This document shows, in pieces, positions 1 through 59,724 of a stretch of DNA of 64,000 nt. The position numbers and the translations under genes were made by a program. The stretch comes from Longimicrobiales bacterium (GTDB lineage: Bacteria; Gemmatimonadota; Gemmatimonadetes; Longimicrobiales; Gaopeijiaceae): contig OZ242008.1 of the NCBI GenBank assembly GCA_965204735.1, positions 1,440,001 through 1,504,000 on the forward strand, read 5' to 3'. The notes beneath the pieces are model-generated. The model saw only the letters and a list, made by a program, of their open reading frames with translations. It had not been told where the DNA came from and did no database searches. The first letter of the stretch is position 1, and the number at the start of each line of letters is the position of its first letter.

Positions 1-117
1 CGTCGCGGACGGAGTTCCCCCGAAGCTGGCCGGGACGGTCTCCGGCCCTGGTCCTCAGTGTCTCACCGAGGATGCGCCATTTCCATGGCTGGATGGGACA
101 GATTTTTTTTCGTCTCT
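1..117 (-). repeat. Dispersed conserved non-coding element, copy A (truncated by window edge)
   Basis: Matches 59391-59506: first 46 nt and last 45 nt identical, short variable middle. Confidence 0.9.
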
Positions 118-376: not shown

Positions 377-979
377 CTAGAACCGGCGGATCAGTCCCAC
401 CACTACCCCCCGAACCCGCACCCGGTTCCCTGGCGCCACGATCGGGTCCATCTCCGCGTTCGCCGGCTGCAGCCGGACCCGGTCGCCGGCCTCCCGGTAG
501 AGCTTCTTGACCGTGGCCGCCTCGTCGTCCACCAGCGCCACCACCGTCTCCCCGTCCCGGGCCGTCTCCTGCGAGGCGACCACGATGTAGTCCCCGTCGC
601 GGATCTGCTCGTCGATCATCGACTGGCCCGACACCCGCAGGACGAAGTGGTCCCGTCCGGGCCGCACCAGCTCGGCCGGCACCGGCAGGCTCTCCTGGTC
701 CTCCACGGCCTCGATCGGCGCGCCGGCCGCCACGGTGCCCAGAAGGGGCAGCGAGACCGCCGCCGGCTCCTGGTCCGGAAACACGATCGAACGGCTTTCC
801 CGGTACGCCTTTCGGATGTACCCCTTCCTCGCCAGATTCGAGACGTGCTCGTGGACGGTGGCGAGGGAGGTGAAGCCGAAGGCGCCGCAGATCTCCTCGT
901 AGCTGGGCGCGTAGCCGTTCTCCTCGACGAACCCCCGGAGGAAGTCCAGGATCTCCTTCTGTCGCTTGGTCAGGGGCAT
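377..979 (-). CDS. lexA: SOS repressor LexA
   Basis: LTKRQKEILDFL...GYAPSYEEI winged HTH; VAAG cleavage site; GQSM catalytic Ser; TVKK catalytic Lys; start at MPLTKRQ. Confidence 0.97.
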   Translation of the reverse strand: MPLTKRQKEILDFLRGFVEENGYAPSYEEICGAFGFTSLATVHEHVSNLARKGYIRKAYRESRSIVFPDQEPAAVSLPLLGTVAAGAPIEAVEDQESLPVPAELVRPGRDHFVLRVSGQSMIDEQIRDGDYIVVASQETARDGETVVALVDDEAATVKKLYREAGDRVRLQPANAEMDPIVAPGNRVRVRGVVVGLIRRF

Positions 980-1052
980 GACGGTTTCCTTGGTTGCAGG
1001 GAGCGCTTTCGTCTGCGCAAGGGCGCGCGGGCTCTCGCCGGGCGGCGTGGAA

Positions 1053-1101
1053 CCGAACATCTTCCGAAGCGTAACCGAATTCAGACCGAAGGTCAAGCGA
1101 A
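1053..1101 (-). promoter_or_regulatory. lexA promoter (TTGACC-N17-TACGCT) overlapped by five 11-bp-phased TTCGG repeats, candidate LexA operator
   Basis: -35 at 1091-1096 and -10 at 1068-1073 on the minus strand; CCGAA at 1053, 1064, 1075, 1086 and GCGAA at 1097. Confidence 0.75.
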
Positions 1102-8661: not shown

Positions 8662-11600
8662 GTGTCGATACTACTTCCCGGTCGTCGCGACCGGTGGGCG
8701 CTCGCTCGAACCCCGGGCCTTGTTGCAGCCCTTGCCGCTCTGCTGGTCGGGCCCGGGGGAGTCGCGGCGCAGGAGTCGTTGCCCACGTTGTCGATTTCGT
8801 CTCCAAGCGTGGCGGAGGGCGCGGCGGACTCGACGGCGGCGCTGACCTTCCAGGTGACGTTGAGCGCGGCGAGCAGCCGGTCGGTGACGGTCGCATACGG
8901 CGACGCCCGAACGGGGACGGCGACGGTGACGCGGGACTACGCCGCGTTCAGCACTGTGATCCTGAGGTTCGCCCCGGGCGACACGGTGAAGAACTTCGAC
9001 GTGACGGTGAAGGGGGACTCGCTGCACGAGCCGAGCGAGACGGTGGTCGCAACGCTGAGCTCGCCGACGAACGCCACGATTGCGACGGGCACGGGCACGG
9101 GAACGATCACGGACGACGACGCCGCGCCGACGGCAACGCTGATCCTGTCGCCTTCCACGGTCCGCGAGGGCGTGCTCTGGGCGACGGTGCGGGCGCAGCT
9201 CGATGGGCGGTCGGCAGCGGCAACGACGATCACGGTGTCGGCGGCGGCGGGTGCGAACGCGGACTCGACCGACTTCGAGTTGAGTTCGAACAGGACGTTG
9301 ACGATTGCGGCGGAACAGATTGCGAGCCGGGGAAACGTGAGGATCACTGCCCTCGACAACGGCGTGGACGAGCCGAACAAGCAGGTGACGGTGTCGGGCA
9401 CGGTGTCGAACAGCATCGGCGGCTTCTCGAACCCTGCGGACGCCACGTTGACGATTCAGGACGACGAGGCGACGCCGAAGGTGAAGCTGGTGCTGTCGCG
9501 TTCGACGATCGACGAGAGCGGCGCAGACAACTCGGCCGTGGTGACGGCGACGATGAGCCCGCCGTCGGTGCAGTCGACGACGATCACGGTGGCTGTGGCG
9601 GCGGGGGGCGGCACAGACTCGACCGACTTCACCGCAAGCGCGAACAAGACGTTGACGATTGCGGCGGGCGACACGACGAGCACGGGCGCGGTGACGGTGA
9701 CGGCGGTGGACAACGACGTGGACGAGCCGAACAAGGTGGTGAGGGTGTCGGCGACGGCGACGAACACGCAGGGAGTCACGAACCCGGACGCCGCGACGCT
9801 GACGATCGCGGACGACGACGCGGCTTCCACGCTGTCGATCTCGTCGCCCAGCGTGGCGGAAGGCGCGGCGGACTCGACGGCGACGCTGACGTTCCAGGTG
9901 AAGTTGAGCGCGCCGAGCGAGCACCGGGTGACGGTGAAGATCAGCGACGCCCGGACGGGCACGGCGACCCTGGCCCAGGACTACGAAGTGTTCTCCGACC
10001 GGATATTGACGTTCGCCGCGGGCGACACGCTTGCGAGCTTCGGCGTGACGGTGCGCGGCGACACGCTGGACGAGCCGAACGAGACGGTGGTGGCGCAGCT
10101 GAGCCAGGCGACGAACGCGACGATTGCGACGGGCACGGGGACGGGGACGATCACGGACGACGACGCGGCGCCGACGGTGACGTTGACGGTGGGGCGCGGG
10201 TCGATCTGGGAGGGCGCGCCGGGGATCACGTGGACGACGGTGCGGGCCGCGTTGAGCGCGGCGTCGAGCGCTGCGACGACGGTGACGGTGAGTGCGGCGG
10301 CGGGCATGAACGCGGACTCGACGGACTTCGCGTTGAGCGCAAACAAGACGCTGACGATCGCGGCGGGCCAGACGCGCAGCACGGAAGACGTGCGGATCAA
10401 CGCGGTGGACAACGCGGTGGACGATCCGAACCGGCAGGTGACGTTGTCGGGGACGGTGTCGAACAGCATCGGGGGCTACTCGAACCCGGCTGACGTGACG
10501 GTGACGATCCAGGACGACGAGGCGACGCCGAAGGTGAAGCTGGTGTTGTCGCGTTCGACGGTCGCCGAGAGCGGCGCGAGCAACTCGACGACGGTGACGG
10601 CGACGATGAGCCCGGCGTCGGTGCAGGAGACGACGATCACGGTGGCCGTGGCGGCGGGCGCGGACGCGGACTCGACCGACTTCACGGTGAGCGCAAACAA
10701 GACGTTGACGATTGCGGCGGGCGACACGGTGAGCACGGGCGTGGTGAGCGTGACGGCGGTGGACAACGACCTGAACGAGCCGAACAAGAGCTTGACGGTG
10801 ACGGCGACGGCAACGAACACGCAGGGCGCAACGAACCCGGACGCCGTGGCCTTGACGATTGCGGACGACGACGGCCAGCCGTCGCTGTCGATCTCGTCGC
10901 CCAGCGTGGCGGAAGGCGCGGCGGGCACGACGGTGGCGTTGACGTTCCAGGTGAAGTTGAGCGCACCGAGCGGCCAGCGTGTGACGGTGAAGGTCGCCGA
11001 CGCGCGGACGGGGACGGCGACGCACTCGGCCGACTACTCGATCTTCTCGGACGCGGTGTTGAGCTTCGCTGCGGGCGACACGCTGAAGAGCTTCGACGTG
11101 ACGGTGGTGGGGGACGATCTGGACGAGCCGAACGAGACGGTGGTGGCGCAGTTGAGTCAGGCGACGAACGCGACGATTGCGACGGGCACGGGGACGGGGA
11201 CGATCACGGACGACGACGCGGCGCCGATGGTGACGTTGACGGTGGGGCGCGGGTCGATCTGGGAGGGCGCGCCGGGGATCACGTGGACGACGGTGCGGGC
11301 CGCGTTGAGCGCGGCGACGAGCGTTGCGACGACGGTGACGGTGAGTGCGGCGGCGGGCATGAACGCGGACTCGACGGACTTCGCGTTGAGCGCGAACAAG
11401 ACGCTGACGATCGCGGCGGGCCAGACGGCGAGCACGGAGGACGTGCGGATCAACGCGGTGGACAACGCGGTGGACGATCCGAACCGGCAGGTGACGTTGT
11501 CGGGCACGGTGTCGAACAGCATCGGGGGCTACTCGAACCCGGCGGACGTGACGGTGACGATCCAGGACGACGAGGCGACGCCGAAGGTGAAGCTGGTGTT

Positions 11601-14600
11601 GTCGCGTTCGACGATCGACGAGAGCGGCGCGAACAACTCGACGACGGTGACGGCGACGATGAGCCCGCCGTCGGTGCAGTCGACGACGGTGACGGTGTCT
11701 GTGGCTGCGGGCGCGGACGCGGACTCGACCGACTTCACGGTGAGCGCGAACAAGACGCTGACGATTGCGGCGGGCGACACGACGAGCACGGGCGCGGTGA
11801 CGGTGACGGCTGTCGACAACGACCTGAACGAGCCGAACAAGGCCTTGACGGTGTCGGCGACGGCGGCGAACACGCAGGGCGCAACGAACCCGGACGCCGT
11901 GGCCTTGACGATCGCGGACGACGACGGCCAGCCGTCGCTGTCGATCTCGTCGCCCAGCGTGGCGGAGGGCGCGGCGGACTCGACGGCGACGCTGACGTTC
12001 CAGGTGAGGCTGAGCGCGCCGAGCGGGCAGCGTGTGACGGTGAAGATCGCCGACGCGCAGACGGGGACGGCGACGCGTGCGGCGGACTACTCGATCTTCT
12101 CGGACGCGGTGTTGAGGTTCGTTGCGGGGGACACGCTGAAGAGCTTCGACGTGACGGTGCGCGGGGACGATCTGGACGAGCCGAACGAGACGGTGGTGGC
12201 GCAGTTGAGCCAGGCGACGAACGCGACGATTGCGACGGGTACGGGGACGGGTACGATCACGGACGACGACGCGGCGCCGACGGTGACGTTGACGTTGGGC
12301 CGCGGGTCGATTTGGGAGGGCGCGCCGGGGATCACGTGGACGACGGTGCGGGCCGCGTTGAGCGCGGCGTCGAGCGCTGCGACGACGGTGACGGTGAGTG
12401 CGGCGGCGGGCATGAACGCGGACTCGACGGACTTCGCGTTGAGCGCGAACAAGACGCTGACGATCGCGGCGGGCCAGACGGCGAGCACGGAGGACGTGCG
12501 GATCAACGCGGTGGACAACGCGGTGGACGATCCGAACCGGCAGGTGACGTTGTCGGGCACGGTGTCGAACAGCATCGGGGGCTACTCGAACCCGGCGGAC
12601 GTGACGGTGACGATCCAGGACGACGAGGCGACGCCGAAGGTGAAGCTGGTGTTGTCGCGCTCGACGGTCGCCGAGAGCGGCGCGACCAACTCGACGACGG
12701 TGACGGCGACGATGAGCCCGGCGTCGGTGCAGTCGACGACGATCACGGTCGCCGTGGCGGCGGGCGCGGACACGGACTCGAGCGACTTCACGGTGAGCGC
12801 GAACAAGACGCTGACGATTGCGGCGGGCGACACGACGAGCACGGGCGTGGTGAGCGTGACGGCGGTGGACAACGACCTGAACGAGCCGAACAAGGCCTTG
12901 ACGGTGTCGGCGACGGCGACGAACACGCAGGGCGCGACGAACCCGGACGCCTTGACGCTGACGATTGCGGACGACGACGGCCAGCCGTCGCTGTCGATCT
13001 CGTCGCCCAGCGTGGCGGAGGGCGCGGCGGACTCGACGGCGACGCTGACGTTCCAGGTGAGGTTGAGCGCGCCGAGCGGCCAGCGTGTGACGGTGAAGGT
13101 CGCCGACGCGCGGACGGGGACGGCGACGCACTCGGCCGACTACTCGATCTTCTCGGACGCGGTGTTGAGGTTCGTTGCGGGCGACACGCTGAAGAGCTTC
13201 GACGTGACGGTGCGCGGCGACGATCTGGACGAGCCGAACGAGACGGTGGTGGCGCAGTTGAGCCAAGCGACGAACGCGACGATTGCGACGGGCACGGGTA
13301 CGGGTACGATCACGGACGACGATGCGGCGCCGACGGTGACGTTGACGGTGGGGCGCGGGTCGATCTGGGAGGGCGCGCCGGGGATCACGTGGACGACGGT
13401 GCGGGCCGGGTTGAGCGCTGCGACGAGCGCTGCGACGACGGTGACGGTGAGCGCGGCGGCGGGCATGAACGCGGACTCGACGGACTTCGCGTTGAGCGCA
13501 AACAAGACGCTGACGATCGCGGCTGGCCAGACGCGCAGCACCGAAGACGTGCGGATCAACGCGGTGGACAACGCGGTGGACGATCCGAACCGGCAGGTGA
13601 CGTTGTCGGGCACGGTGTCGAACAGCATCGGGGGGTACTCGAACCCGGCGGACGTGACGGTGACGATCCAGGACGACGAGGCGACGCCGAAGGTGAAGCT
13701 GGTGTTGTCGCGTTCGACGATCGACGAGAGCGGCGCGACCAACTCAGCAACGGTGACGGCGACGATGAGTCCGCCGTCGGTGCAGTCGACGACGATCACG
13801 GTGGCCGTGGCGGCAGGCGCGGACGCGGACTCGAGCGACTTCACGGTGAGCGCGAACAAGACGCTGACGATTGCGGCGGGCGACACGACGAGCACGGGCG
13901 TGGTGAGCGTGACGGCGGTGGACAACGACCTGAACGAGCCGAACAAGAGCTTGACGGTGACGGCGACGGCGACGAACACGCAGGGAGTCACGAACCCCGA
14001 CAACCTGACGCTCACCATCGCGGACGACGACAGCCAGCCGTCGCTGTCGATCTCGTCGCCCAGCGTGGCGGAGGGCGCGGCGGACTCGACGGCGACGCTG
14101 ACGTTCCGGGTAAGGCTGAGCGCGCCGAGCGGCCAGCGCGTGACGGTGAAGGTCGCCGACGCGCGGACGGGGACGGCGACGCACTCGGCCGACTACTCGA
14201 TCTTCTCGGACGCGGTGTTGAGCTTCGCTGCGGGCGACACGCTGAAGAGCTTCGACGTGACGGTGGTGGGCGACGATCTGGACGAGCCGAACGAGACGGT
14301 GGTGGCGCAGTTGAGCCAGGCGACGAACGCGACGATCGCGACCGCAACAGGGACGGGGACGATCACGGACGACGACGCGGCGCCGACGGTGACGTTGACG
14401 GTGGGGCGCGGGTCGATCTGGGAGGGCGCGCCGGGGATCACGTGGACGACGGTGCGGGCCGGGTTGAGCGCGGTGTCGAGCGCTGCGACGACGGTGACGG
14501 TGAGCGCGGCGGCGGGCATGAACGCGGACTCGACCGACTTCGCGTTGAGCGCGAACAAGACGCTGACGATTGCGGCGGGCCAGACGGCGAGCACGGAGGA

Positions 14601-17600
14601 TGTGCGGATCAACGCGGTGGACAACGCGGTGGACGATCCGAACCGGCAGGTGACGTTGTCGGGCACGGTGTCGAACAGCATCGGGGGCTACTCGAACCCG
14701 GCGGACGTGACGGTGACGATCCAGGACGACGAGGCGACGCCGAAGGTGAAGCTGGTGCTGTCGCGTTCGACGGTCGCCGAGAGCGGCGCGACCAACTCGG
14801 CAACCGTGACGGCGACGATGAGTCCGCCGTCGGTGCAGTCGACGACGGTGACGGTGGCCGTGGCGGCGGGCGCGGACACGGACTCGAGCGACTTCACGGT
14901 GAGCGCGAACAAGACGCTGACGATTGCGGCGGGCGACACGACGAGCACGGGCGTGGTGAGCGTGACGGCGGTGGACAACGACCTGAACGAGCCGAACAAG
15001 GCCTTGACGGTATCGGCGACGGCAACGAACACGCAGGGAGTCACGAACCCCGACAACCTGACGCTCACCATCGCGGACGACGACGGCCAGCCGTCGCTGT
15101 CGATCTCGTCGCCCAGCGTGGCGGAAGGCGCGGCGGACTCGACGGCGACGCTGACGTTCCAGGTGAGGCTGAGTGCGCCGAGCGGGCAGCGTGTGACGGT
15201 GAAGATCGCCGACGCGCAGACGGGGACGGCGACGCGTGCGGCGGACTACTCGATCTTCTCGGACGCGGTGTTGAGGTTCGCTGCGGGCGACACGCTGAAG
15301 AGCTTCGACGTGACGGTGCGCGGGGACGACCTGGACGAGCCGAACGAGACGGTAGTGGCGCAGTTGAGCCAGGCGACGAACGCGACGATTGCGACGGGCA
15401 CGGGGACGGGGACGATCACGGACGACGACGCGGCGCCGACGGTGACGTTGACGGTGGGGCGCGGGTCGATCTGGGAGGGGGCGCCGGGGATCACGTGGAC
15501 GACGGTGCGGGCCGCGTTGAGCGCGGTGTCGAGCGCTGCGACGACGGTGACGGTGAGCGCCGCGGCGGGAACGAACGCGGACTCGACGGACTTCGCGTTG
15601 AGCGCGAACAAGACGCTGACGATTGCGGCGGGCCAGACGGCGAGCACCGAAGACGTGCGGATCAACGCGGTGGACAACGCGGTGGACGATCCGAACCGGC
15701 AGGTGACGTTGTCGGGGACGGTGTCGAACAGCATCGGGGGCTACTCGAACCCGGCAGACGTGACGGTGACGATTCAGGACGACGAGGCGACGCCGAAGGT
15801 GAAGCTGGTGCTGTCGCGTTCGACGATCGACGAGAGCGGTGCAAACAACTCGACGACGGTGACGGCGACGATGAGCCCGCCGTCGGTGCAGTCGACGACG
15901 ATCACGGTGGCCGTGGCGGCGGGCGCGGACGCGGACTCGGCCGACTTCACGGTGAGCGCGAACAAGACGTTGACGATTGCGGCGGGCGACACGACGAGCA
16001 CGGGCGTGGTGAGCGTGACGGCGGTGGACAACGACCTGAACGAGCCGAACAAGGCCTTGACGGTATCGGCGACGGCAACGAACACGCAGGGAGTCACGAA
16101 CCCCGACAACCTGACGCTCACCATCGCGGACGACGACGGCCAGCCGTCGCTGTCGATCTCGTCGCCCAGCGTGGCGGAGGGCGCGGCGGACTCGACGGCG
16201 ACGCTGACGTTCCAGGTGAGGCTGAGCGCGCCGAGCGGCCAGCGCGTGACGGTGAAGATCGCCGACGCGCGGACGGGGACGGCGACGCACTCGGCCGACT
16301 ACTCGATCTTCTCGGACGCGGTGTTGAGGTTCGTTGCGGGCGACACGCTGAAGAGCTTTGACGTGACGGTGCGCGGGGACGATCTGGACGAGCCGAACGA
16401 GACGGTGGTGGCGCAGCTGAGCCAGGCGACGAACGCGACGATCGCGACCGCAACAGGGACGGGGACGATCACGGACGACGACGCGGCGCCGACGGTGACG
16501 TTGACGGTGGGCCGCTCAACGATCCGGGAGGGCGGGACCGGCTTTACGTACACGACCGTGCGGGCCGACCTGAGCGAGAGGTCGGGCGCTGCGACGACGG
16601 TGACGGTGAGCGCAGCCCCCGGCACGAACGCCGACTCGACCGACTTCACGGTGAGCGCGAACAAGACGCTGACGATCGCGGCGGGGGACACGGCGAGCAC
16701 GGGCACGGTGGAACTGCGGGCCGTAAATGACGCGGTGGACGGTCCGGACAAGCAGGTGACGGTGTCGGGCACGGTGTCGAACAGCATCGGGGGGTACTCG
16801 AACCCGGCGGACGTGACGGTGACGATCCAGGACGACGAGGCGACGCCGAAGGTGCAGCTGGTGTTGTCGCGCACAAGCATCGGCGAGAGCGGCGCGAGCA
16901 ACTCGGCCGTGGTGACGGCGACGATGAGCCCGCCGTCGGTGCAGTCGACGACGATCACGGTCGCCGTGGCGGCCGGGGCGGGCGCCGACTCGGCCGACTT
17001 CACACTGAGCGCGAACAAGACGCTGACGATTGCGGCGGGCGACACGACGAGCACGGGCGTGGTGAGCGTGACGGCGGTGGACAACGACCTGGACGAGCCG
17101 AACAAGGCCTTGACGGTGTCGGCGACGGCAACGAACACGCAGGGCGCGACGAACCCCGACGCCGTGACGCTGACCATTGCGGACGACGACGGCCAGCCGT
17201 CGCTGTTGATCTCGTCGCCCAGCGTGGCGGAGGGCGCGGCGGACTCGACGGCGACGCTGACGTTCCGGGTGAGGCTGAGCGCGCCGAGCGGCCAGCGCGT
17301 GACGGTGAGGATCGCCGATGCGCGGACTGGGACGGCGACCTTCTCCACGGACTACGCGACCTTCAGCGATGCGACCCTGAGCTTCGCGGCGGGCGACACG
17401 GTGACGACCTTTGACGTGACGGTGAACGGGGACGATCTGGACGAGCCGAACGAGACGGTGGTGGCGCAGTTGAGCCAGGCGACGAACGCGACGATCGCAA
17501 CGGGCACGGGGACGGGCACGATCACGGACGACGATGCGGCTCCCACGGTGATGCTGTCGTTGGGACGCTCGACGATCCGGGAGGGCGGGATCGGCTTTAC

Positions 17601-20600
17601 GTACACGACCGTGCGGGCCGACCTGAGCGAGAGGTCGGGCGCGGCGACGACGGTGACCGTGAGCGCAGCCCCCGGCACAAACGCGGACTCGACCGACTTC
17701 ACGCTGAGCGCGAACAAGACGCTGACGATCGCTGCGGGCCAGACGGCGAGCACAGAGGACGTGCGGATCAACGCGGTGGACAATGCGTTGGACGGTCCGA
17801 ACAAGCAGGTGACGGTTTCGGGTGCGGTGTCGAACAGCATCGGGGGCTACTCGAACCCGGCGGACGTGACGGTGACGATCCAGGACGACGAGGCGACGCC
17901 GAAGGTGAAGCTGGTGTTGTCGCGCACAAGCATCGCCGAGAGCGGCGCGAGCAACTCGGCCGTGGTGACGGCAACGATGAGCCCGCCGTCGGTGCAGGAG
18001 ACGACGATCACGGTCGCCGTGGCGGCCGGCGCGGACGCCGACTCGGCCGACTTCACGGTGAGCGCGAACAAGACGCTGACGATCGCGGCGGGCGACACGA
18101 CGAGCACGGGTGCGGTGACGGTGACGGCGGTGGACAACAACCTGGACGAGCCGAACAAGGCCTTGACTGTGTCGGCGACGGCAACGAACACGCAGGGCGT
18201 CACGAACCCTGACAACCTGACGCTCACCATCGTAGACGACGACGGAACCAGCTCGTCGACGCTCATCGCCCGCTCCACCAGAGTGGCCGAGGGCGGGTCG
18301 GGTGCCACGGCCGTCCTGCGCTTCATGGTACGGCTTGTCCCGGCCTCGACCGCCCGCGTTACCGTGAACTACGCCGATGCGGGCTCGGGCACGGCCACGC
18401 CCGGCGCCGACTACGAGGCCCTTGCGGGCGGCACGTTGACGTTCGAGGCGGGCGACACGCTCGCGACCATCAACGTGACGGTCGTCGGCGACGAAGTGCA
18501 GGAAGGAGACGAGACGGTCGTGCTGACCCTGAGCGGCGCGACCAACGCGCAGCTGGCCGCTCCCACGATCACGGGCACGATCGTGGACGACGACGCGCTC
18601 CCGCCGCCGTCGCTGCATGTCGACTCGCCCAAGATGCAGGAGGGCGACGACGGGTTCGCGACGATGCCGTACACGGTCACGCTTCTTCCGGCGAGCGCGG
18701 AAGAGGTGAGGGTGGACTACGCCGACGCCCGCGCAGGCACGGCGACCTCTGGCACCGACTACACATTGCAGCCCGGCACGCTGGTCTTCCAACCGGGCGA
18801 CACGGTCCGCACGATCCCAGTGCAGGTCGCCGGCGACAACGCGAAGGAGCCCGACGAGACCGTCGTGGTCGTCTTGAGCAACGCCCGCGGAGCGCTCCTC
18901 ACGACGGTCGAGGCGACCGGCACGATCCTGGACGACGAAGTCACGTTCATCGCCGTGGACGCGCCCTCGGCGGAAGAGGGGGACGCGCGCCACGGAAGCA
19001 ACGACGACGCACCCGCCACCCTCGTGTTCACGGTCTCGCTGGCGCCGGCCGGCTATCAAGAGGTCTCGGTCGCCTACGCCGATGCAGGCACGGGCACCGC
19101 CACCCCGGGCGTCGACTACGAGGCGCCCAGCCCGGACACGCTGTCATTCGCCCCCGGGGAAACGCGCAAGACGGTGGAAGTGACGTTGATCGGCGACGAC
19201 CTCGACGAGTCCGACGAGACCGTGGTGCTGCAGCTGAGCCGGCCCACGAACGCCGAGATCGAAGGGAACGGCAGAGGCACGGGAACGATTGTGGACGACG
19301 ACGGTGCGCCGACCCTCTCCATCGACTCGCCCACGGTCGAGGAAGGCGGACCGGGCGAGACGGCCGCCCTGCGGTTCGCCGTGCGCCTGAACGCACCCAC
19401 GACCAAGCAGGTCGCGGTGGACTACGCCGACGCGGGCACGGGCACGGCCACGCCCGACGCCGACTACCAAGCGGTGGCGCCCGGCACGCTGGTCTTCGCC
19501 CCCGGGGACACCGTCAAGGCCGTGGAAGCGACCGTTCACGGCGACGCCCTGGACGAGCCCGCCGAAACGATCCTGCTGGCGCTGACCAACCCCGTCCACG
19601 CCGAACTCGCCGAGGACGGCGCCACCGGCGTCGCCACGATCGCGGACGACGACGCCGCCCCCTTCCTCTCCATCGACTCGCCCACGGTCCAGGAAGGCGG
19701 TCCCGGCGAGTCGGCCGTCGTCTCGTTCACCGTCTCGCTCGGCGCGCCCTCGGCCAAGCGCGTCAAGGTGGACTACGCCGACGCGGGCACGGGCACGGCC
19801 ACGCCCGACGCCGACTACCAAGCGGTGGCGCCCGGCACGCTGGTCTTCGCCCCCGGGGACACCGTCAAGGCCGTGGGAGCGACCGTTCACGGCGACGCCC
19901 TGGACGAGCCCGCCGAAACGATCGTGCTGGCGCTGACCAACCCCGTCCACGCCGAACTCGCCGAGGACGGCGCTACCGGCGTCGCCACGATCGCGGACGA
20001 CGACGATGCCCCGTCCCTCTCCGTCGACTCGCCCACGGTCGTGGAGGGGGACGACGGCCGCCGGCCCCTGACCTTTTCCTTCACGCTGGACCGCCCCAGC
20101 GGCCGGCGCGTGGTCATGGAGTACGCCGACGCGGGCACGGGCACCGCGACGCCGGGCGCAGACTACGAGGAAGTCCCGCCGGGCGCCCTCTCCTTCGAGC
20201 CGGGCGAGACCCTGAAGACCATCGATGTGATGGTGCTCGGAGACGCGCGCCACGAACCCGACGAGACGGTGGTTCTTCGGCTCTCCACGCCCGACCCGGC
20301 GGTTGCGAACCTGACGACGGAGGAGGGCGTCGGCGCCATCGGGAACGACGACGCGAACCTGATCCCCACCTTCGGCGACGCCCTGGTCCCGCCCCAGCGC
20401 TGGATGGAGGGCCGCGGGATCGATCCCCTGCGGCTGCCGCCGGCCCAAGGGGGCGACGGACCCCTGTCGTACGCCCTGGCCCCCGCCTTGCCTCCGGGGC
20501 TGGTCTTCGATCCCGAGAGCCGCACCGTCGCCGGCACGCCCGGCGCAGGGCAGCCCGTCACCGCCTACCGCTACGCCGCCACCGACCAAGACGGCGACTC

Positions 20601-21933
20601 GGCGACGCTGTCGTTCACGATCGAGGTCGTGGCGGCCGAGCAGACCGCGCGCAGGCTGGACGAGGTCAACCGCGCCGTCCTGCCCGAGGTCGCGCGCACT
20701 TGGGCCGACGTGGCGTCGAACGCGGTGGCCGGCCGCGTCGCCCAGGCGGGCCATGCCGGAACCGGGGCAGGCGCCTGGGGACACGGCGAGCGCCGGGAGC
20801 TCTCGGGCGCGCGCGGCCAAGGCAGCCCCGTCGATTGGTCGGGCGAGGTCGCCGTCTTCGGGGCGGGCGCGGACGTGGGCTTGGGCGCCGCCGTCACCCT
20901 GGGCGTGGCCGTCACCCGGCTCGAAAGCGTCTTCGACTACGCCCACCACGACGAAGGGCGCACCGTCGGCGGTCGCCACGAAACCAGCCTCGCCGGCGTT
21001 CACCCCTACTTGGGCTGGTCGGGCGCCGGGGGCTCCCATGCGTGGACCACGGCCGGCTGGGCCACGAGCGACGTGGTCGTTCGCGACGACGAGGTCGGGC
21101 CGCAGACGGCCGCCGGGCGCGCCCAGATGCTGGCCGCTGGGGCCAGCGTGCGCCTCTTCGCCGGCTCGGGCGGCGGGACCGTGAACGCGAAAGGCGACGG
21201 GCATGTCGCCCGGTTCCAGCTCGACGGCGACGGCGACCGGCTCTCGGCCCTGGAGGTCGGCGTCCACCGCCTGCGCTTCGCCTTCGAGGCCGGCCGCTCG
21301 TTCCGGCTCGGCGGCAACGGCACGCTCAAGCCCTCGGTGGCCCTCGGCGTCCGCCAAGACGGCGGCGACGGCCGCATCGGCGCCGGGCTGGAGGCCGGAG
21401 GCGGCCTGACCCTCTCCGCCTGGAACTCGCGACTGCAAGTGGAGGCCGCCGGGCGAACGCTGCTCGCCCACGGCGGCGGGTTGGCCGAGTGGGGAGCCGG
21501 CGGTTCGCTCCGCGTCGCGCCCGGCGCCGACGGCCGCGGCCTCTCCCTCTCGGTGGCGCCGGAATGGGGCGTCCCGGCGAGCGGGATTGGGCAGCTCTGG
21601 CAGCAGGGCGTGGCGCAGCGCCCCGTCTTCGGCCATCCGCAACCACCCGGCCCGACCCCAGCTGGAAAACCGGGCCCGGCCCAGCCGCAGCACGCCGTCC
21701 CCGGCTCCCGGCTCCGCACCGAGATGGCTTACGGCCTCGGGGCGACGGTCGCCGGCACGGAGGCCTGGTTGGTGACGCCCTTCGCCGCCCTCGGCCCCGA
21801 CCTGGGCGGCGGGGGAACGGCTTGGCGCTTCGGCGCGCGCCTGCGGACGCCCACGGCCGTGGGGCTGGCCGTCGGCCTGGAAGCCGCCTACCCCGGATCC
21901 GGTCTCCGCCTGGACCTGGAACTCAATCGGTAG
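8662..21933 (+). CDS. Giant Calx-beta repeat surface adhesin with Ig-like domain and autotransporter-type beta-barrel (4423 aa)
   Basis: Signal peptide (..GVAA/QES); about 33 Calx-beta-like domains (GDDLDEPNETV..TGTITDDD); LPPGLVFD..VAGTP He_PIG-like domain; C-terminal amphipathic strands with GVRQDGGD. Confidence 0.92.
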   Translation: MSILLPGRRDRWALARTPGLVAALAALLVGPGGVAAQESLPTLSISSPSVAEGAADSTAALTFQVTLSAASSRSVTVAYGDARTGTATVTRDYAAFSTVILRFAPGDTVKNFDVTVKGDSLHEPSETVVATLSSPTNATIATGTGTGTITDDDAAPTATLILSPSTVREGVLWATVRAQLDGRSAAATTITVSAAAGANADSTDFELSSNRTLTIAAEQIASRGNVRITALDNGVDEPNKQVTVSGTVSNSIGGFSNPADATLTIQDDEATPKVKLVLSRSTIDESGADNSAVVTATMSPPSVQSTTITVAVAAGGGTDSTDFTASANKTLTIAAGDTTSTGAVTVTAVDNDVDEPNKVVRVSATATNTQGVTNPDAATLTIADDDAASTLSISSPSVAEGAADSTATLTFQVKLSAPSEHRVTVKISDARTGTATLAQDYEVFSDRILTFAAGDTLASFGVTVRGDTLDEPNETVVAQLSQATNATIATGTGTGTITDDDAAPTVTLTVGRGSIWEGAPGITWTTVRAALSAASSAATTVTVSAAAGMNADSTDFALSANKTLTIAAGQTRSTEDVRINAVDNAVDDPNRQVTLSGTVSNSIGGYSNPADVTVTIQDDEATPKVKLVLSRSTVAESGASNSTTVTATMSPASVQETTITVAVAAGADADSTDFTVSANKTLTIAAGDTVSTGVVSVTAVDNDLNEPNKSLTVTATATNTQGATNPDAVALTIADDDGQPSLSISSPSVAEGAAGTTVALTFQVKLSAPSGQRVTVKVADARTGTATHSADYSIFSDAVLSFAAGDTLKSFDVTVVGDDLDEPNETVVAQLSQATNATIATGTGTGTITDDDAAPMVTLTVGRGSIWEGAPGITWTTVRAALSAATSVATTVTVSAAAGMNADSTDFALSANKTLTIAAGQTASTEDVRINAVDNAVDDPNRQVTLSGTVSNSIGGYSNPADVTVTIQDDEATPKVKLVLSRSTIDESGANNSTTVTATMSPPSVQSTTVTVSVAAGADADSTDFTVSANKTLTIAAGDTTSTGAVTVTAVDNDLNEPNKALTVSATAANTQGATNPDAVALTIADDDGQPSLSISSPSVAEGAADSTATLTFQVRLSAPSGQRVTVKIADAQTGTATRAADYSIFSDAVLRFVAGDTLKSFDVTVRGDDLDEPNETVVAQLSQATNATIATGTGTGTITDDDAAPTVTLTLGRGSIWEGAPGITWTTVRAALSAASSAATTVTVSAAAGMNADSTDFALSANKTLTIAAGQTASTEDVRINAVDNAVDDPNRQVTLSGTVSNSIGGYSNPADVTVTIQDDEATPKVKLVLSRSTVAESGATNSTTVTATMSPASVQSTTITVAVAAGADTDSSDFTVSANKTLTIAAGDTTSTGVVSVTAVDNDLNEPNKALTVSATATNTQGATNPDALTLTIADDDGQPSLSISSPSVAEGAADSTATLTFQVRLSAPSGQRVTVKVADARTGTATHSADYSIFSDAVLRFVAGDTLKSFDVTVRGDDLDEPNETVVAQLSQATNATIATGTGTGTITDDDAAPTVTLTVGRGSIWEGAPGITWTTVRAGLSAATSAATTVTVSAAAGMNADSTDFALSANKTLTIAAGQTRSTEDVRINAVDNAVDDPNRQVTLSGTVSNSIGGYSNPADVTVTIQDDEATPKVKLVLSRSTIDESGATNSATVTATMSPPSVQSTTITVAVAAGADADSSDFTVSANKTLTIAAGDTTSTGVVSVTAVDNDLNEPNKSLTVTATATNTQGVTNPDNLTLTIADDDSQPSLSISSPSVAEGAADSTATLTFRVRLSAPSGQRVTVKVADARTGTATHSADYSIFSDAVLSFAAGDTLKSFDVTVVGDDLDEPNETVVAQLSQATNATIATATGTGTITDDDAAPTVTLTVGRGSIWEGAPGITWTTVRAGLSAVSSAATTVTVSAAAGMNADSTDFALSANKTLTIAAGQTASTEDVRINAVDNAVDDPNRQVTLSGTVSNSIGGYSNPADVTVTIQDDEATPKVKLVLSRSTVAESGATNSATVTATMSPPSVQSTTVTVAVAAGADTDSSDFTVSANKTLTIAAGDTTSTGVVSVTAVDNDLNEPNKALTVSATATNTQGVTNPDNLTLTIADDDGQPSLSISSPSVAEGAADSTATLTFQVRLSAPSGQRVTVKIADAQTGTATRAADYSIFSDAVLRFAAGDTLKSFDVTVRGDDLDEPNETVVAQLSQATNATIATGTGTGTITDDDAAPTVTLTVGRGSIWEGAPGITWTTVRAALSAVSSAATTVTVSAAAGTNADSTDFALSANKTLTIAAGQTASTEDVRINAVDNAVDDPNRQVTLSGTVSNSIGGYSNPADVTVTIQDDEATPKVKLVLSRSTIDESGANNSTTVTATMSPPSVQSTTITVAVAAGADADSADFTVSANKTLTIAAGDTTSTGVVSVTAVDNDLNEPNKALTVSATATNTQGVTNPDNLTLTIADDDGQPSLSISSPSVAEGAADSTATLTFQVRLSAPSGQRVTVKIADARTGTATHSADYSIFSDAVLRFVAGDTLKSFDVTVRGDDLDEPNETVVAQLSQATNATIATATGTGTITDDDAAPTVTLTVGRSTIREGGTGFTYTTVRADLSERSGAATTVTVSAAPGTNADSTDFTVSANKTLTIAAGDTASTGTVELRAVNDAVDGPDKQVTVSGTVSNSIGGYSNPADVTVTIQDDEATPKVQLVLSRTSIGESGASNSAVVTATMSPPSVQSTTITVAVAAGAGADSADFTLSANKTLTIAAGDTTSTGVVSVTAVDNDLDEPNKALTVSATATNTQGATNPDAVTLTIADDDGQPSLLISSPSVAEGAADSTATLTFRVRLSAPSGQRVTVRIADARTGTATFSTDYATFSDATLSFAAGDTVTTFDVTVNGDDLDEPNETVVAQLSQATNATIATGTGTGTITDDDAAPTVMLSLGRSTIREGGIGFTYTTVRADLSERSGAATTVTVSAAPGTNADSTDFTLSANKTLTIAAGQTASTEDVRINAVDNALDGPNKQVTVSGAVSNSIGGYSNPADVTVTIQDDEATPKVKLVLSRTSIAESGASNSAVVTATMSPPSVQETTITVAVAAGADADSADFTVSANKTLTIAAGDTTSTGAVTVTAVDNNLDEPNKALTVSATATNTQGVTNPDNLTLTIVDDDGTSSSTLIARSTRVAEGGSGATAVLRFMVRLVPASTARVTVNYADAGSGTATPGADYEALAGGTLTFEAGDTLATINVTVVGDEVQEGDETVVLTLSGATNAQLAAPTITGTIVDDDALPPPSLHVDSPKMQEGDDGFATMPYTVTLLPASAEEVRVDYADARAGTATSGTDYTLQPGTLVFQPGDTVRTIPVQVAGDNAKEPDETVVVVLSNARGALLTTVEATGTILDDEVTFIAVDAPSAEEGDARHGSNDDAPATLVFTVSLAPAGYQEVSVAYADAGTGTATPGVDYEAPSPDTLSFAPGETRKTVEVTLIGDDLDESDETVVLQLSRPTNAEIEGNGRGTGTIVDDDGAPTLSIDSPTVEEGGPGETAALRFAVRLNAPTTKQVAVDYADAGTGTATPDADYQAVAPGTLVFAPGDTVKAVEATVHGDALDEPAETILLALTNPVHAELAEDGATGVATIADDDAAPFLSIDSPTVQEGGPGESAVVSFTVSLGAPSAKRVKVDYADAGTGTATPDADYQAVAPGTLVFAPGDTVKAVGATVHGDALDEPAETIVLALTNPVHAELAEDGATGVATIADDDDAPSLSVDSPTVVEGDDGRRPLTFSFTLDRPSGRRVVMEYADAGTGTATPGADYEEVPPGALSFEPGETLKTIDVMVLGDARHEPDETVVLRLSTPDPAVANLTTEEGVGAIGNDDANLIPTFGDALVPPQRWMEGRGIDPLRLPPAQGGDGPLSYALAPALPPGLVFDPESRTVAGTPGAGQPVTAYRYAATDQDGDSATLSFTIEVVAAEQTARRLDEVNRAVLPEVARTWADVASNAVAGRVAQAGHAGTGAGAWGHGERRELSGARGQGSPVDWSGEVAVFGAGADVGLGAAVTLGVAVTRLESVFDYAHHDEGRTVGGRHETSLAGVHPYLGWSGAGGSHAWTTAGWATSDVVVRDDEVGPQTAAGRAQMLAAGASVRLFAGSGGGTVNAKGDGHVARFQLDGDGDRLSALEVGVHRLRFAFEAGRSFRLGGNGTLKPSVALGVRQDGGDGRIGAGLEAGGGLTLSAWNSRLQVEAAGRTLLAHGGGLAEWGAGGSLRVAPGADGRGLSLSVAPEWGVPASGIGQLWQQGVAQRPVFGHPQPPGPTPAGKPGPAQPQHAVPGSRLRTEMAYGLGATVAGTEAWLVTPFAALGPDLGGGGTAWRFGARLRTPTAVGLAVGLEAAYPGSGLRLDLELNR
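8791..18245 (+). repeat. Nine tandem ~1053-bp (351-aa, three-domain) intragenic units
   Basis: Unit starts near 8791, 9835, 10888, 11941, 12994, 14047, 15100, 16153, 17206. Confidence 0.9.
19315..20035 (+). repeat. 351-bp tandem duplication of a single Calx-beta domain
   Basis: DYADAGTGTATPDADYQAVAPGTLVFAPGDTVKAV...LAEDGATGVATIADDD occurs twice, nearly identical at DNA level. Confidence 0.85.
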
Positions 21934-57283: not shown

Positions 57284-57383
57284 GACCATGACCCGTCCCG
57301 GTCCCCTCGACGCGAACGCGCAGAGGTCGCCGTCCCGGTTGCGGCGGCGCCCATGAGACCATGACCCGTCCCGGCCCCCTCGA
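57270..57383 (+). repeat. 41-bp near-perfect direct repeat duplicating the birA-stop/coaX-start junction
   Basis: GGCGGCGCCCATGAGACCATGACCCGTCCCGG(T/C)CCCCTCGA at 57270 and 57343. Confidence 0.88.
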
Positions 57384-58245
57384 TCCTGCGCGCGCCCAGC
57401 CGGCGCCCGCGGAACCCGGAGCCCCGCGCCCAGATCCGCCCACCCCCCGCCAGGCGCCCACGGCCTGCCAGCTGGTCGCCGACGTGGGCAACACCGACAT
57501 CGTCTTCGGCCTCCTGGACCTTTCCGGCGACAACGTGCTGAACCACTGGCGAGCGAGTGCCCGCGTTCCCCGGACCGAGGCCGAGTGCCGGGTGCTCCTC
57601 TCGGCCCTGCTGGTGCCGACCCTGGCGAAGGACGTCGTCGTCCAGCGGGGGGTCGTGGGCTCCGTCGTGCCCTCCGTCACCCGAACCGTCGCGACGGCCA
57701 TGTCGTCGGTGGTGGACGGCCCCGTCGTAGTGGCGACCGCCCACTCGGACCTGCCGATCGTCCTCGACGTGGAGGAGCCCCTGACCGTGGGCGCCGACCG
57801 GATCGTCAACACCTTGGCCGCCAAGGTTCGCTTCGCCCGAGACACCATCGCCGTGGACCTGGGAACCGCCACCACCTTCGACTGCATCACGGCCCAGGGC
57901 GTCTTCCGGGGAGGCGTCATCGCTCCAGGGATCGGCGCCGGGCTGGACTGGCTCGCCACACGAACCGCCCAGCTCCCCAGGGTGGACCTGACGCCCCCCC
58001 GAGCCGTTGTTGGCCGCCGCACGGCCGAGTGCATCCGGAGCGGCGTCTTCCATTCGGCGGTCGCCGGCGTGGACGGGATCGTGGCGAAGCTCAAGGAGGA
58101 GTGGACCAGCGCCGACCCGCTGGTGGTCGCGACGGGGGGCTTTGCGTCGCTGATCGGCCCCCACGCCTCGGCGGTGGACCGGATCGAACCCTTCCTGACC
58201 CTCCACGGCCTAGGGATCGCCGGCGCCCACCTGGACCCACGCTAG
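57361..58245 (+). CDS. coaX: Type III pantothenate kinase
   Basis: DVGNT, GADR, VDLGTATTFD, GGVIAPG, ATGG. Confidence 0.95.
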   Translation: MTRPGPLDPARAQPAPAEPGAPRPDPPTPRQAPTACQLVADVGNTDIVFGLLDLSGDNVLNHWRASARVPRTEAECRVLLSALLVPTLAKDVVVQRGVVGSVVPSVTRTVATAMSSVVDGPVVVATAHSDLPIVLDVEEPLTVGADRIVNTLAAKVRFARDTIAVDLGTATTFDCITAQGVFRGGVIAPGIGAGLDWLATRTAQLPRVDLTPPRAVVGRRTAECIRSGVFHSAVAGVDGIVAKLKEEWTSADPLVVATGGFASLIGPHASAVDRIEPFLTLHGLGIAGAHLDPR

Positions 58246-58252
58246 TCCGTCA

Positions 58253-58555
58253 CTACCGCCCCTCCGCGTCGCCGTCGCCGGCCACGGCCAGGAACTCGTC
58301 GGCAGTGTCGCACTCCACGACCGCGTCCCCGACCCGCGCCAGCTGCTCGGCGCTCATGGAGCGCACCCGCGCCTCCAGCCGTCGCGCCGTCTGGGCCCCG
58401 AACCGCCGCGAAGCCTGACGCAGCAAGACCGCTCGGCCTTCCGCGCGACCCCGCTCGAGGCCCTGCTCACGTCCCCGTTCGAGCCCCTGCTGAAGCCCCT
58501 GCTCCAGGCCCCGCTGCCGGTGGCCCTCCGCCCACTCCGCATAGGTCTGGCCCAT
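58253..58555 (-). CDS. Predicted internally initiated small Rpn C-terminal protein (100 aa)
   Basis: In-frame ATG preceded by AAGGAGGAG-CAAGAG, just before the GLEQG repeats. Confidence 0.6.
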   Translation of the reverse strand: MGQTYAEWAEGHRQRGLEQGLQQGLERGREQGLERGRAEGRAVLLRQASRRFGAQTARRLEARVRSMSAEQLARVGDAVVECDTADEFLAVAGDGDAEGR

Positions 58556-59347
58556 CTCTTGCTCCTCCTTCGGTTGGATGATCTGCTCCACGATGTCCTC
58601 ACGTGCCTCTTCCGGCGCGCCCACCTTACGCAGCCGCTCGTCCGTCCAGTCTGCGAACGCCTGCCGCTCTGCAAGATAGTCCGGGCCGGCCCACTGCTCC
58701 GCCATGCTCTGGTGCACCGCCGGAAAGTTCGTCCACGGGTCCTCCTCCAGAGCCGCGACCCAGCCCAGCACGCTCCCCCTGGGAAGCAACCCTTGCGCCA
58801 GCGCCGACCGCAAGTCAAGCAGCCCGTAGCCGTGAGTGGTCGCCAGGTCGGCCACCGCCCGCGCCACCACCGGCGACGGCTCCTCCCGGCTGGCCAGCCC
58901 GGCCAACGTCGTCTCGGCCGTCCATGGCCTCGTGCCGGTGTAGACGACGAACGAGAGCACGAGGGGCATGGTGCCGTCGGGGTTGCGCTGCCGCTCGTGC
59001 GTGTGCAGCACCGTGTGGGCGGCCTCGCTGTAGCGCAGTGTCCTGAGGACCATGCCCGGATCGACGGAGGACTGGAACTCGAAGAGGAAGACGGCGGATC
59101 GACCGTCCTTGAACCGGACGCGCCAAGCGCAGTCGCAGAGCCGGCGCTGCAGGTCGGGGCCCACGGTCTCGGTGGGGAAGGGATCGACGGCCAGCAGGTC
59201 GAGCTGGTCGGCCCAGCGCTTGGCCGCCAAGTCGCGGATGAGGGCCACGACGGCAGCCACGGTGTTGAAGAGGCGCTTGTAGCTCTGGTCGTGGCGGCGG
59301 CGTTCCGACTTGGTGAGAGAGGGCGGTTCGCTGGTGGAAGGGTCCAT
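58253..59347 (-). CDS. Rpn/YhgA-like PD-(D/E)XK nuclease (putative transposase family) with DUF4351-like C-terminus
   Basis: [39 protein letters not shown] repeats, RQASRRFG. Confidence 0.88.
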
Positions 59348-59380
59348 TGCGGCGGCTCCGTTGCGTCCGAGACGAGAGGC

Positions 59381-59506
59381 GCTTCGGAGGCGTCGCGGAC
59401 GGAGTTCCCCCGAAGCTGGCCGGGACGGTCTCCGGCTCTGGCCCAAGGATCTCACCGTGCGTGCGCCATTTCCATGGCTGGATGGGACAGATTTTTTTTC
59501 GTCTCT
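59381..59506 (-). repeat. Dispersed conserved non-coding element, copy B, upstream of the Rpn gene; potentially structured
   Basis: Homologous to 1-117; GCCAT-GGAA-ATGGC hairpin and a GCTTCGG(G/A)GG stem. Confidence 0.85.
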
Positions 59507-59571
59507 CGCGGGCCGGGACGGAGACCCTTGCGTCCAACGAACCAGGCGTGCTGAAGCTCCTCCGGCGCCTA

Positions 59572-59632
59572 GGCTGGCCCTTCCCCCTTGCCCCAGGCTG
59601 GCCCCTCCCCCTTGCCCCTGGCTGGCCCCTCG
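59572..59632. repeat. 24-bp tandem repeat (about 2.5 copies)
   Basis: GGCTGGCCC(T/C)TCCCCCTTGCCCC reiterated. Confidence 0.75.
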
Positions 59633-59667: not shown

Positions 59668-59724
59668 TTGACGTCGCCCCTCGAAGCGTCCACCTTGTTA
59701 GCACTCACTCGCATCGAGTGCTAG
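59668..59724 (+). promoter_or_regulatory. groESL promoter and CIRCE (HrcA operator)
   Basis: TTGACG-N17-CACCTT, then TTAGCACTC-N9-GAGTGCTAG at 59698-59724 (one mismatch to consensus); extra GAGTGCTGG half-site near 59746. Confidence 0.92.

Follow-up and report, generated by a model that had tools for sequence, protein, structure and literature searches.

The known Rpn/YhgA systems are the closest described relatives of the genes considered here. In the passages of PMC5350276 and PMC10400941 used for comparison, they share with these genes the PF04754 domain, the catalytic residues, an internal translation start, variable four-residue repeats and variable ends. The function of Rpn proteins, the time at which they are made and the way in which their genes spread without transposing are presented in these papers as open questions. 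According to section 5 of PMC10400941, rpn genes have variable ends and do not transpose autonomously. No regulatory leader of an Rpn gene is described in the passages used, and the words competence, Sxy and CRP do not occur in the main texts of the two papers. Rpn is also absent from the passages used of a 2025 review on competence and mobile elements (PMC12378983).

The CRP-S/Sxy (TfoX) regulon of gamma-proteobacteria, whose motif was established by footprinting, contains the same set of genes as the regulon reported below, namely pilin and pilus genes, comEA, comM, ssb, radC and dprA; ppdD and yrfD/hofM depend on Sxy and CRP (PMC1635313). The late-competence regulon of ComX (SigX) in S. pneumoniae also includes comEA, ssbB, recA, radC and dprA, together with bacteriocins, and two Rpn-like pseudogenes are listed among the ComX-induced genes (PMC6560143, Table 3). 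Two further systems resemble the present one in their promoters. PafBC promoters of actinobacteria likewise have an activator element about 10 bp before a TAnnnT -10 and no canonical -35 (PMC8635444), and in the DdaA regulon of Moraxellaceae a host activator likewise co-regulates DNA-handling and defence genes through one promoter motif (PMC12392091).

Here we describe a repeated leader of Rpn genes in a Longimicrobiales bacterium. On the sequence evidence presented below, it is likely an activator-dependent promoter of a natural-competence regulon in two Gemmatimonadota families, carried by Rpn toxin-antitoxin genes as their leader.

Results

The DNA examined, referred to as the window, is a stretch of 64,000 nt (GCA_965204735.1, contig OZ242008.1, positions 1,440,001-1,504,000, forward strand) from the genome denoted G000. 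In the ComM tree, G000 lies in a clade with a record named Gemmatimonadota, that record and G021 having support of 99/96. An earlier note on the window had drawn attention to an element occurring twice in it, once as the leader of an Rpn gene. The two copies are indeed identical at positions 1-46 and 59391-59436 and at positions 73-117 and 59462-59506, with mismatches at the adjoining bases. Their orientation is equal, and copy B ends 44 nt before the Rpn ATG at 59347. Homology extends past these blocks, with 89% identity over 199 nt, and reaches into the Rpn gene. The second Rpn gene predicted to lie left of the window is present at G000:1438875-1439957 on the minus strand and encodes 360 aa. 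A BLASTN search of the whole genome, which is a single contig, with copy B returned 11 copies at E<=3e-37, the next match having E=1e-3. All 11 are situated upstream of a paralog of the window Rpn, and leader and gene form a dispersed unit in each case, as had been supposed.

The gene behind copy B (58253..59347, minus strand) encodes RpnL, a 364-aa Rpn/YhgA-like PD-(D/E)XK nuclease that matches PF04754 with 54.6 bits against a cut-off of 21. Its residues D72, E90, Q92 and R102 align with D63, E82, Q84 and R94 of RpnA (residues as given in the part of PMC5350276 used here), and by eye the counterpart of RpnA D11 lies in an RHD motif. A Transposase_31 domain above the cut-off and the PD-(D/E)XK residues thus place the protein among the Rpn nucleases. 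An internal ATG with a GGAGGA ribosome site opens a 100-aa frame (58253..58555, minus strand) containing five four-residue repeats. Such an internal ribosome site and ATG can be read in all 11 paralogs, followed by 1-14 repeats per paralog (8 different values among 11). By analogy to PMC10400941, the short product is a putative RpnS antitoxin. Over the first 230 residues, where they were compared, the window-type paralogs share 88-97% protein identity. G000 contains 27 PF04754 matches, and a related-locus search with the window Rpn gave no confirmed relative. At one locus (L025, G000:3182566-3183412), an internal deletion has fused the leader with the central part of the nuclease domain; the first catalytic residues are lost, while the promoter and the RpnS start are intact.

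The conserved core of the leader has the consensus GKCCC-N7-CAT-N6-GYCC-N12-xAnnnT. The blocks GKCCC, CAT and GYCC are spaced by about one helical turn in a fixed geometry and are followed by a -10-like xAnnnT. The motif was built from comM and recA upstream regions of genera other than that of the window, with G(T/G)CCC at positions 0-4, CAT at 12-14, G(C/T/G)CC at 21-24, A at 38 (26 of 29 training sites) and T at 42 (29 of 29). The last two positions would be compatible with a -10 hexamer whose first base is weak. A canonical -35 is absent from these promoters, and the genus of the window typically adds an A-tract upstream of the box, which also precedes ssb and pilin. In several genomes the comM start codon lies only 11-12 nt past the hexamer, so the box precedes the transcript and there is no space for an RNA element. 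Similarly, being upstream of its own -10 hexamer, the box would be outside the mRNA. We infer that it is an activator-dependent housekeeping promoter.

In copy A, the box (GTCCC..CAT..GGCGC; 73..99, minus strand) spans about -49 to -23 relative to the presumed start and is the proposed activator site. It is the same in all 11 copies (0 differences in 45 pairs) and scores 21.4 bits with the comM/recA matrix of other genera. Directly upstream lies an A8 tract (103..110, minus strand), which may act like an UP element. The -10-like hexamer GACACT (57..62, minus strand) is found 37 nt past the box start, with its A and T fixed. From the presumed start, the predicted 5' UTR (1..50, minus strand) extends leftward to the Rpn ATG at G000:1439957 and contains two possible hairpins. 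Copy B has the same arrangement on the minus strand: an A8 tract in the sequence at 59492..59499, a box at 59462..59488 (23.7 bits) and, at the motif position, the -10-like hexamer GATCCT at 59446..59451. Its predicted 5' UTR (59348..59439) includes a hairpin H1 (59419-59436) and a stem H2 (59381-59416), which are restricted to one Rpn subclade. Among the G000 paralogs the box is invariant, whereas the neighbouring spacer differs by 17%, four-fold sites by 7% and the UTR part by 2.8%. Erosion of the left flank among the copies never goes beyond the A-tract.

Several variants of this arrangement were observed. Two loci (L011 and L023) carry a tandem duplication of 21-22 nt immediately before the A-tract, and at three other Rpn loci the box itself is doubled with a 21-nt period. 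In G012, the first half of the box alone occurs three times (L003, L007, L010) within a 10-bp inverted repeat, and two of these copies precede what by eye appear to be DUF222/HNH genes.

An iterated matrix scan of G000 yielded 32 sites of at least 33 bits (19 of the 32 being training seeds), and the reversed and complemented G000 controls gave no match above 10 bits. Nineteen sites precede Rpn genes or fragments and cover at least four Rpn subfamilies. The other 13 precede ssb, recA, comM, pilin-pilM-pilN, comEA-pilT-pilC, pilB, secA-radC, a C39 peptidase cluster (L032) and unknown genes. The downstream products identified are SSB, RecA, ComM/YifB, pilin with PilM/PilN, ComEA-PilT-T2SSF, PilB/GspE and SecA-RadC. 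A competence-type gene set behind the box recurs in other genera, and a search of relatives with the leader picked up short matches in front of ssb, a pilin gene and Rpn genes. The combination of pilus genes, comEA, comM, ssb, recA and radC corresponds to the gene content of competence regulons (PMC1635313; PMC6560143, Table 3, in the parts used). The conserved core is therefore not specific to Rpn but is probably the promoter of a competence-type regulon. This leaves the part of the earlier note that took the conserved stretch for an RNA or an element end without support, as the invariant block is a DNA promoter box common to single-copy competence and recombination genes.

The membership has irregular edges. 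In G000, comEC has no box, and that of the dprA operon is weak (1.1 bits by the genus matrix, 18.2 bits for the core alone). An ECF sigma gene (G000:3651833) has a partial box with the -10 absent. Since the box is also found upstream of recQ, yraN, the C39 peptidase cluster and unknown genes, the regulon could represent a wider stress state. Across family f1, the second, proximal promoter of recA contains a TTCG-N7-TTCG repeat, which we take to be a LexA site from its likeness to a familiar motif and from the repeats before lexA. Upstream of lexA in the window (1050-1092) there are four CCGAA repeats with an 11-nt period, the complement of the recA repeat and presumably the LexA box of this lineage, given the same resemblance.

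The distribution of the box was examined with comM and recA upstream regions. In families f1 and f3, 36 of 41 regions score at least 10.8 bits (the top 29 being the training set), against a null maximum of 9.1, while in family f2 none of 11 reaches this value. All five out-of-sample f1 comM promoters score at least 11.7 bits, compared with 0 of 35 from other orders and classes. Only 1 of 76 named comM loci passes, a Gemmatimonadota record grouping inside f1. With a strict pattern, matches occur in 34 of 37 f1 genomes and all four f3 genomes, mostly 5-33 each; other families have 0-3, like the backwards control. Family f2 and other orders possess ComEC yet are without the box. The box thus appears to be confined to two Gemmatimonadota families. 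Literature searches found no description of the box or of competence regulation in Gemmatimonadota, and within the literature searched this competence-type promoter is previously undescribed.

In relatives, the box also stands before multicopy or mobile genes, including those for CCDC90-like coiled-coil proteins, a phage-integrase-family protein, an IS91-like transposase and 23S-IVP four-helix proteins, as well as before HicB-containing loci and a gene for a metallo-beta-lactamase-fold/lamin-tail protein (L300, L309, L322, L277, L274, L278, L287, L294, L279 and L332).

The box disappears along with ComEC and ComEA. No strict match occurs in three near-complete f1 genomes (G008, G260, G302), and a single one occurs in two others (G088, G095). 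The first four of these five lack ComEC (absent in 4 of 13 f1 genomes tested) and ComEA (absent in 4 of 14), and both proteins are present in every other f1 genome tested. The exception is G095, which has both in spite of its single strict match. In G008, comM is missing as well, and recA retains its proximal promoter with the box lost. The genomes compared (20-22) were hand-picked with the low-count ones included, and G260 and G302 are congeners, so the losses correspond to about three independent events.

In genera g6 and g71, Rpn is found in 18 of 20 box-bearing genomes and is absent from two of three box-free ones. G302 has five Rpn copies that are 90-97% identical, of a distant type (~29% identity) with another leader, in a genome without box and ComEC. 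Rpn is thus able to multiply without the box, and a strict need of competence for Rpn multiplication is contradicted. The five G302 genes (L333-L337) share their own 260-nt leader, four of them also a 150-nt trailer, and constitute a clean case for studying box-independent spread.

The link between Rpn and the box was quantified with a matrix free of Rpn sequence, trained only on comM/recA promoters of other genera. It reaches 9 bits or more in front of 105 of 124 Rpn matches from 9 genomes (a subset of the matches listed); the corresponding figures are 1 of 124 for the reverse strand and, as background, 90 of 2776 for G000 genes. The matches missed include tandem fragments, a variant with a spacer one base shorter and one box beyond the 600-nt window searched. 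The Rpn proteins form 13 clusters at 45% identity, and the box-positive ones are spread across clusters sharing less than 45%, so the link is either old or was made many times.

Comparable links were found outside Gemmatimonadota. In E. coli K-12, a CRP-S-like element is situated 146-149 nt upstream of all five rpn genes (L426-L430). With a matrix built on seven competence promoters, rpnA, B, D and E obtain scores of 13.5-23.8 and rpnC one of 3.9-4.1, against a background of 43 regions in which one reaches 17.7 and the next 8.5. The reciprocal matrix, from the five rpn leaders, scores nine of nine competence promoters at 7.4-16.0 in the same registers, above all 43 background regions (maximum 7.0); these sets are small, the rpn register was chosen with the competence-trained matrix, and reverse-strand scores are also high. 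A 2009 E. coli Sxy microarray study by Sinha may list yhgA-like genes as induced, in which case the E. coli link could already have been published in the form of a gene table. The two pneumococcal Rpn-like genes are broken and were dismissed in the part of PMC6560143 used here, whereas at least 20 are intact in G000. ComX is an alternative sigma factor, in contrast to the housekeeping-like -10 that follows the Gemmatimonadota box (PMC6560143). The best reading of these comparisons is that Rpn toxin-antitoxin genes would belong to competence regulons in three phyla.

Discussion

An alternative to a competence promoter is that the box is a LexA-independent DNA-damage promoter, controlled by a PafB/PafC-like WYL pair or another ssDNA-sensing activator, with competence and Rpn genes merely part of the response. 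Adjacent PafB- and PafC-like proteins exist in G000 (E 1.8e-17 and 1.9e-14 to solved structures), recA, ssb, recQ and radC are members of the regulon, and some 10 bp separate the end of the last box block from the -10, as in the tGTCgg(N10)tA(N3)T promoter in the part of PMC8635444 used here. The presence of two recA promoters also agrees with the PafBC comparison. The spacing is similar; relative to the GTC element at -28 to -23 before TAnnnT, however, the box triplet is shifted by one base and is often GCC, and the box has two extra upstream blocks. PafB was found in only 16 of 36 f1 genomes, and no WYL domain was found in the box-bearing genomes G012, G021, G017 and G015. The persistence of the box in genomes where PafB or WYL was not found refutes PafBC as the sole regulator. 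Moreover, uvr, recN, ruv and lexA are all absent from the genes identified behind the 32 strong sites, and the box disappears where ComEC and ComEA are missing, but recA is retained there. We consider a damage promoter unlikely on these grounds. DdaA, a WYL damage regulator, took the place of SOS (PMC12392091, in the part used), whereas G000 keeps LexA and its regulon is centred on DNA uptake. The adjacent PafB-/PafC-like WYL genes (L073, G000:3223984-3226201) are an observation in their own right, being located outside Actinobacteria; within the order, 27 of 61 genomes gave a PafB match.

Several other candidates for the activator of the proposed competence promoter were rejected. The CRP-S motif TGCGA-N6-TCGCA is unrelated to the box, and neither TfoX_N nor a CRP-type HTH was found in G000; in the wider searches, TfoX_N was found in none of five genomes and HTH_Crp_2 in neither G000 nor G003. 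A LytTR (ComE-type) regulator was considered as well, and PF04397 was not found in G000 or G021. LytTR direct-repeat promoters have a 21-bp repeat period. None of the three RpoD-like sigma factors, with orthology assigned by position and identity, tracks the box: two are universal, and the third is absent from box-bearing G108/G138 although box-free G260/G302 retain it.

The earlier note had regarded the element as a structured cis-regulatory RNA of Rpn genes. The features on which this was based are all present in the sequence, namely the A8 run, the GCCAU-GGAA-AUGGC hairpin (59465-59478, enclosed by the box of copy B), the stem and the long-range complement, and the MFE fold includes these helices. 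Nevertheless, the fold is hardly different from shuffled sequences (z -1.14 for the whole, z -0.06 for the predicted transcribed part alone), and an Rfam scan of the window gave 0 matches. In an alignment of 23 leaders from the Rpn subclade of the window, the GNRA hairpin is broken in 13 at one pair and in 10 at another with no compensatory change, contrary to the covariation that such a structure should show, and the long-range helix is paired in 61-67%. Stem H2 (GCUUCGG/CCGAAGC) is the best case, with 93% of cells paired, five pairs that are invariant or vary on one side only, and one U-A to C-G change, but that change is confined to two near-identical sequences. H1 and H2 are also missing from most box-bearing Rpn leaders, including the G002 Rpn at the same locus, and the invariant block precedes its own -10 and occurs before non-Rpn genes. 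A regulatory RNA is thus a quite improbable explanation of the element, and stem H2 may form a minor hairpin in the 5' UTR of a single Rpn subclade.

A further reading is that the element marks the terminus, or a site of recombination, of an autonomous Rpn insertion sequence. The Rpn units are clearly dispersed. The copies lie in 11 differing neighbourhoods, and the comparison of relatives proposed in the earlier note revealed empty sites. In G003, coaX adjoins the groES promoter with no Rpn between them; in the window, coaX (type III pantothenate kinase by Pfam; 57361..58245, plus strand) is the convergent host gene at the right end of the copy B cassette. The site at lexA (Pfam; 377..979, minus strand), the host gene upstream of copy A with a trpD-like gene (by eye) on the far side, is empty in G003 and G122 and filled with Rpn in G002. 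Read depth over Rpn and leader is several-fold above that of the flanks in four runs, and no contig skips the cassette of copy B among the 15 joints listed (105 more exist). Six of the 27 Rpn sites of G002 are common to G000, two of them holding another subfamily (host-gene flanks only; matches to Rpn fragments dropped). These patterns fit hot spots, replacement and old insertion with gene conversion alike and do not distinguish them.

The ends of the cassettes argue against such an insertion sequence. Shared flanks stop at different places in every copy (left ends at -11 to -118, right ends at +7 to +146), so the expected shared terminus did not appear. The shortest shared unit still spans the A-tract to the stop codon. 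The 11 copies have no common terminus, no inverted repeat between ends and no consistent target duplication, and their ragged ends match the variable ends of rpn genes in section 5 of PMC10400941, where these genes also lack autonomous transposition. With the same core standing before single-copy host genes, we regard an autonomous insertion sequence as very unlikely. The tetranucleotide CTAG was rejected as a target duplication, being near several right ends but not forming a pair across the two ends.

Some further features of these sites and of the window may be recorded. CTAG occurs at or near the right ends G000:1498253, 1641646, 1438875, 2638491 and 2618130, in runs at two sites, and is about nine-fold under-represented in G000 (1273 against ~11,670 expected); the right-end cases are partly TAG stops of convergent genes. 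In the interval between the Rpn cassette and the groES promoter, three imperfect C-rich tandem repeats of 20-22 nt (window 59570-59630) are absent from the empty site of G003. An inverted repeat before groES-groEL (59698-59724), also present in G003, is presumably CIRCE-like. A 4423-aa ORF (8662-21933, plus strand), opposite which numerous short ORFs recur on the minus strand, probably encodes a giant repeat protein.

Finally, the similarity of the copies as a neutral by-product of recent Rpn duplication or gene conversion, with a functionless leader, has hardly any probability left: some leader identity is expected from paralogs that are 88-97% identical, and the UTR differs by less than the four-fold sites, which may make this account hold for the UTR hairpins, but for the box it is refuted by retention before Rpn clusters at 30-37% identity, in five genera, and before unrelated host genes, and by left-flank erosion that stops at the A-tract.

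We propose, then, that the element is a competence promoter, at which an activator would bind at -49 to -23 in place of a canonical -35 and recruit the housekeeping RNA polymerase. When competence is switched on, pili, ComEA, ComM, Ssb, RecA and RadC would be made, and full-length RpnL would also be made from about 20 loci, each RpnL being kept in check by an RpnS antitoxin translated from the internal start of its own gene. The numerous identical copies would be the promoters of recently multiplied or homogenised Rpn paralogs. This arrangement suggests that Rpn nucleases are made when the cell takes up DNA.

A more general proposal is that Rpn genes are competence-timed modules across bacteria, with three unrelated systems, the box, CRP-S/Sxy and ComX, each standing before Rpn; in its bold form, the locus could punish its own loss or promote its own uptake. 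We put this forward tentatively, as an idea with somewhat less than an even chance. RpnL would be made at just the time when an rpn locus is at risk of deletion or replacement by transformation, and with antitoxin specificity tied to the repeat number, the locus could punish its loss. Alternatively, RpnL might cut DNA and thereby favour its own uptake and integration. A version with benefit to the host has the same timing, Rpn guarding against phage or foreign DNA while the pili and the uptake channel are open. If true, the bold form would explain the transposase-free spread, the ragged ends and the swapped subfamilies at shared sites.

Conclusions

For a phylum that is mostly uncultured, the finding delineates a competence regulon together with its promoter, and other multicopy or mobile genes also ride on the same host promoter. 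The loss series of G008, G260, G302 and G088, compared with their congeners, offers a route to a new activator other than Sxy/CRP, PafBC or LytTR. For the Rpn family, a competence promoter before the gene names a condition under which the function of Rpn can be tested.
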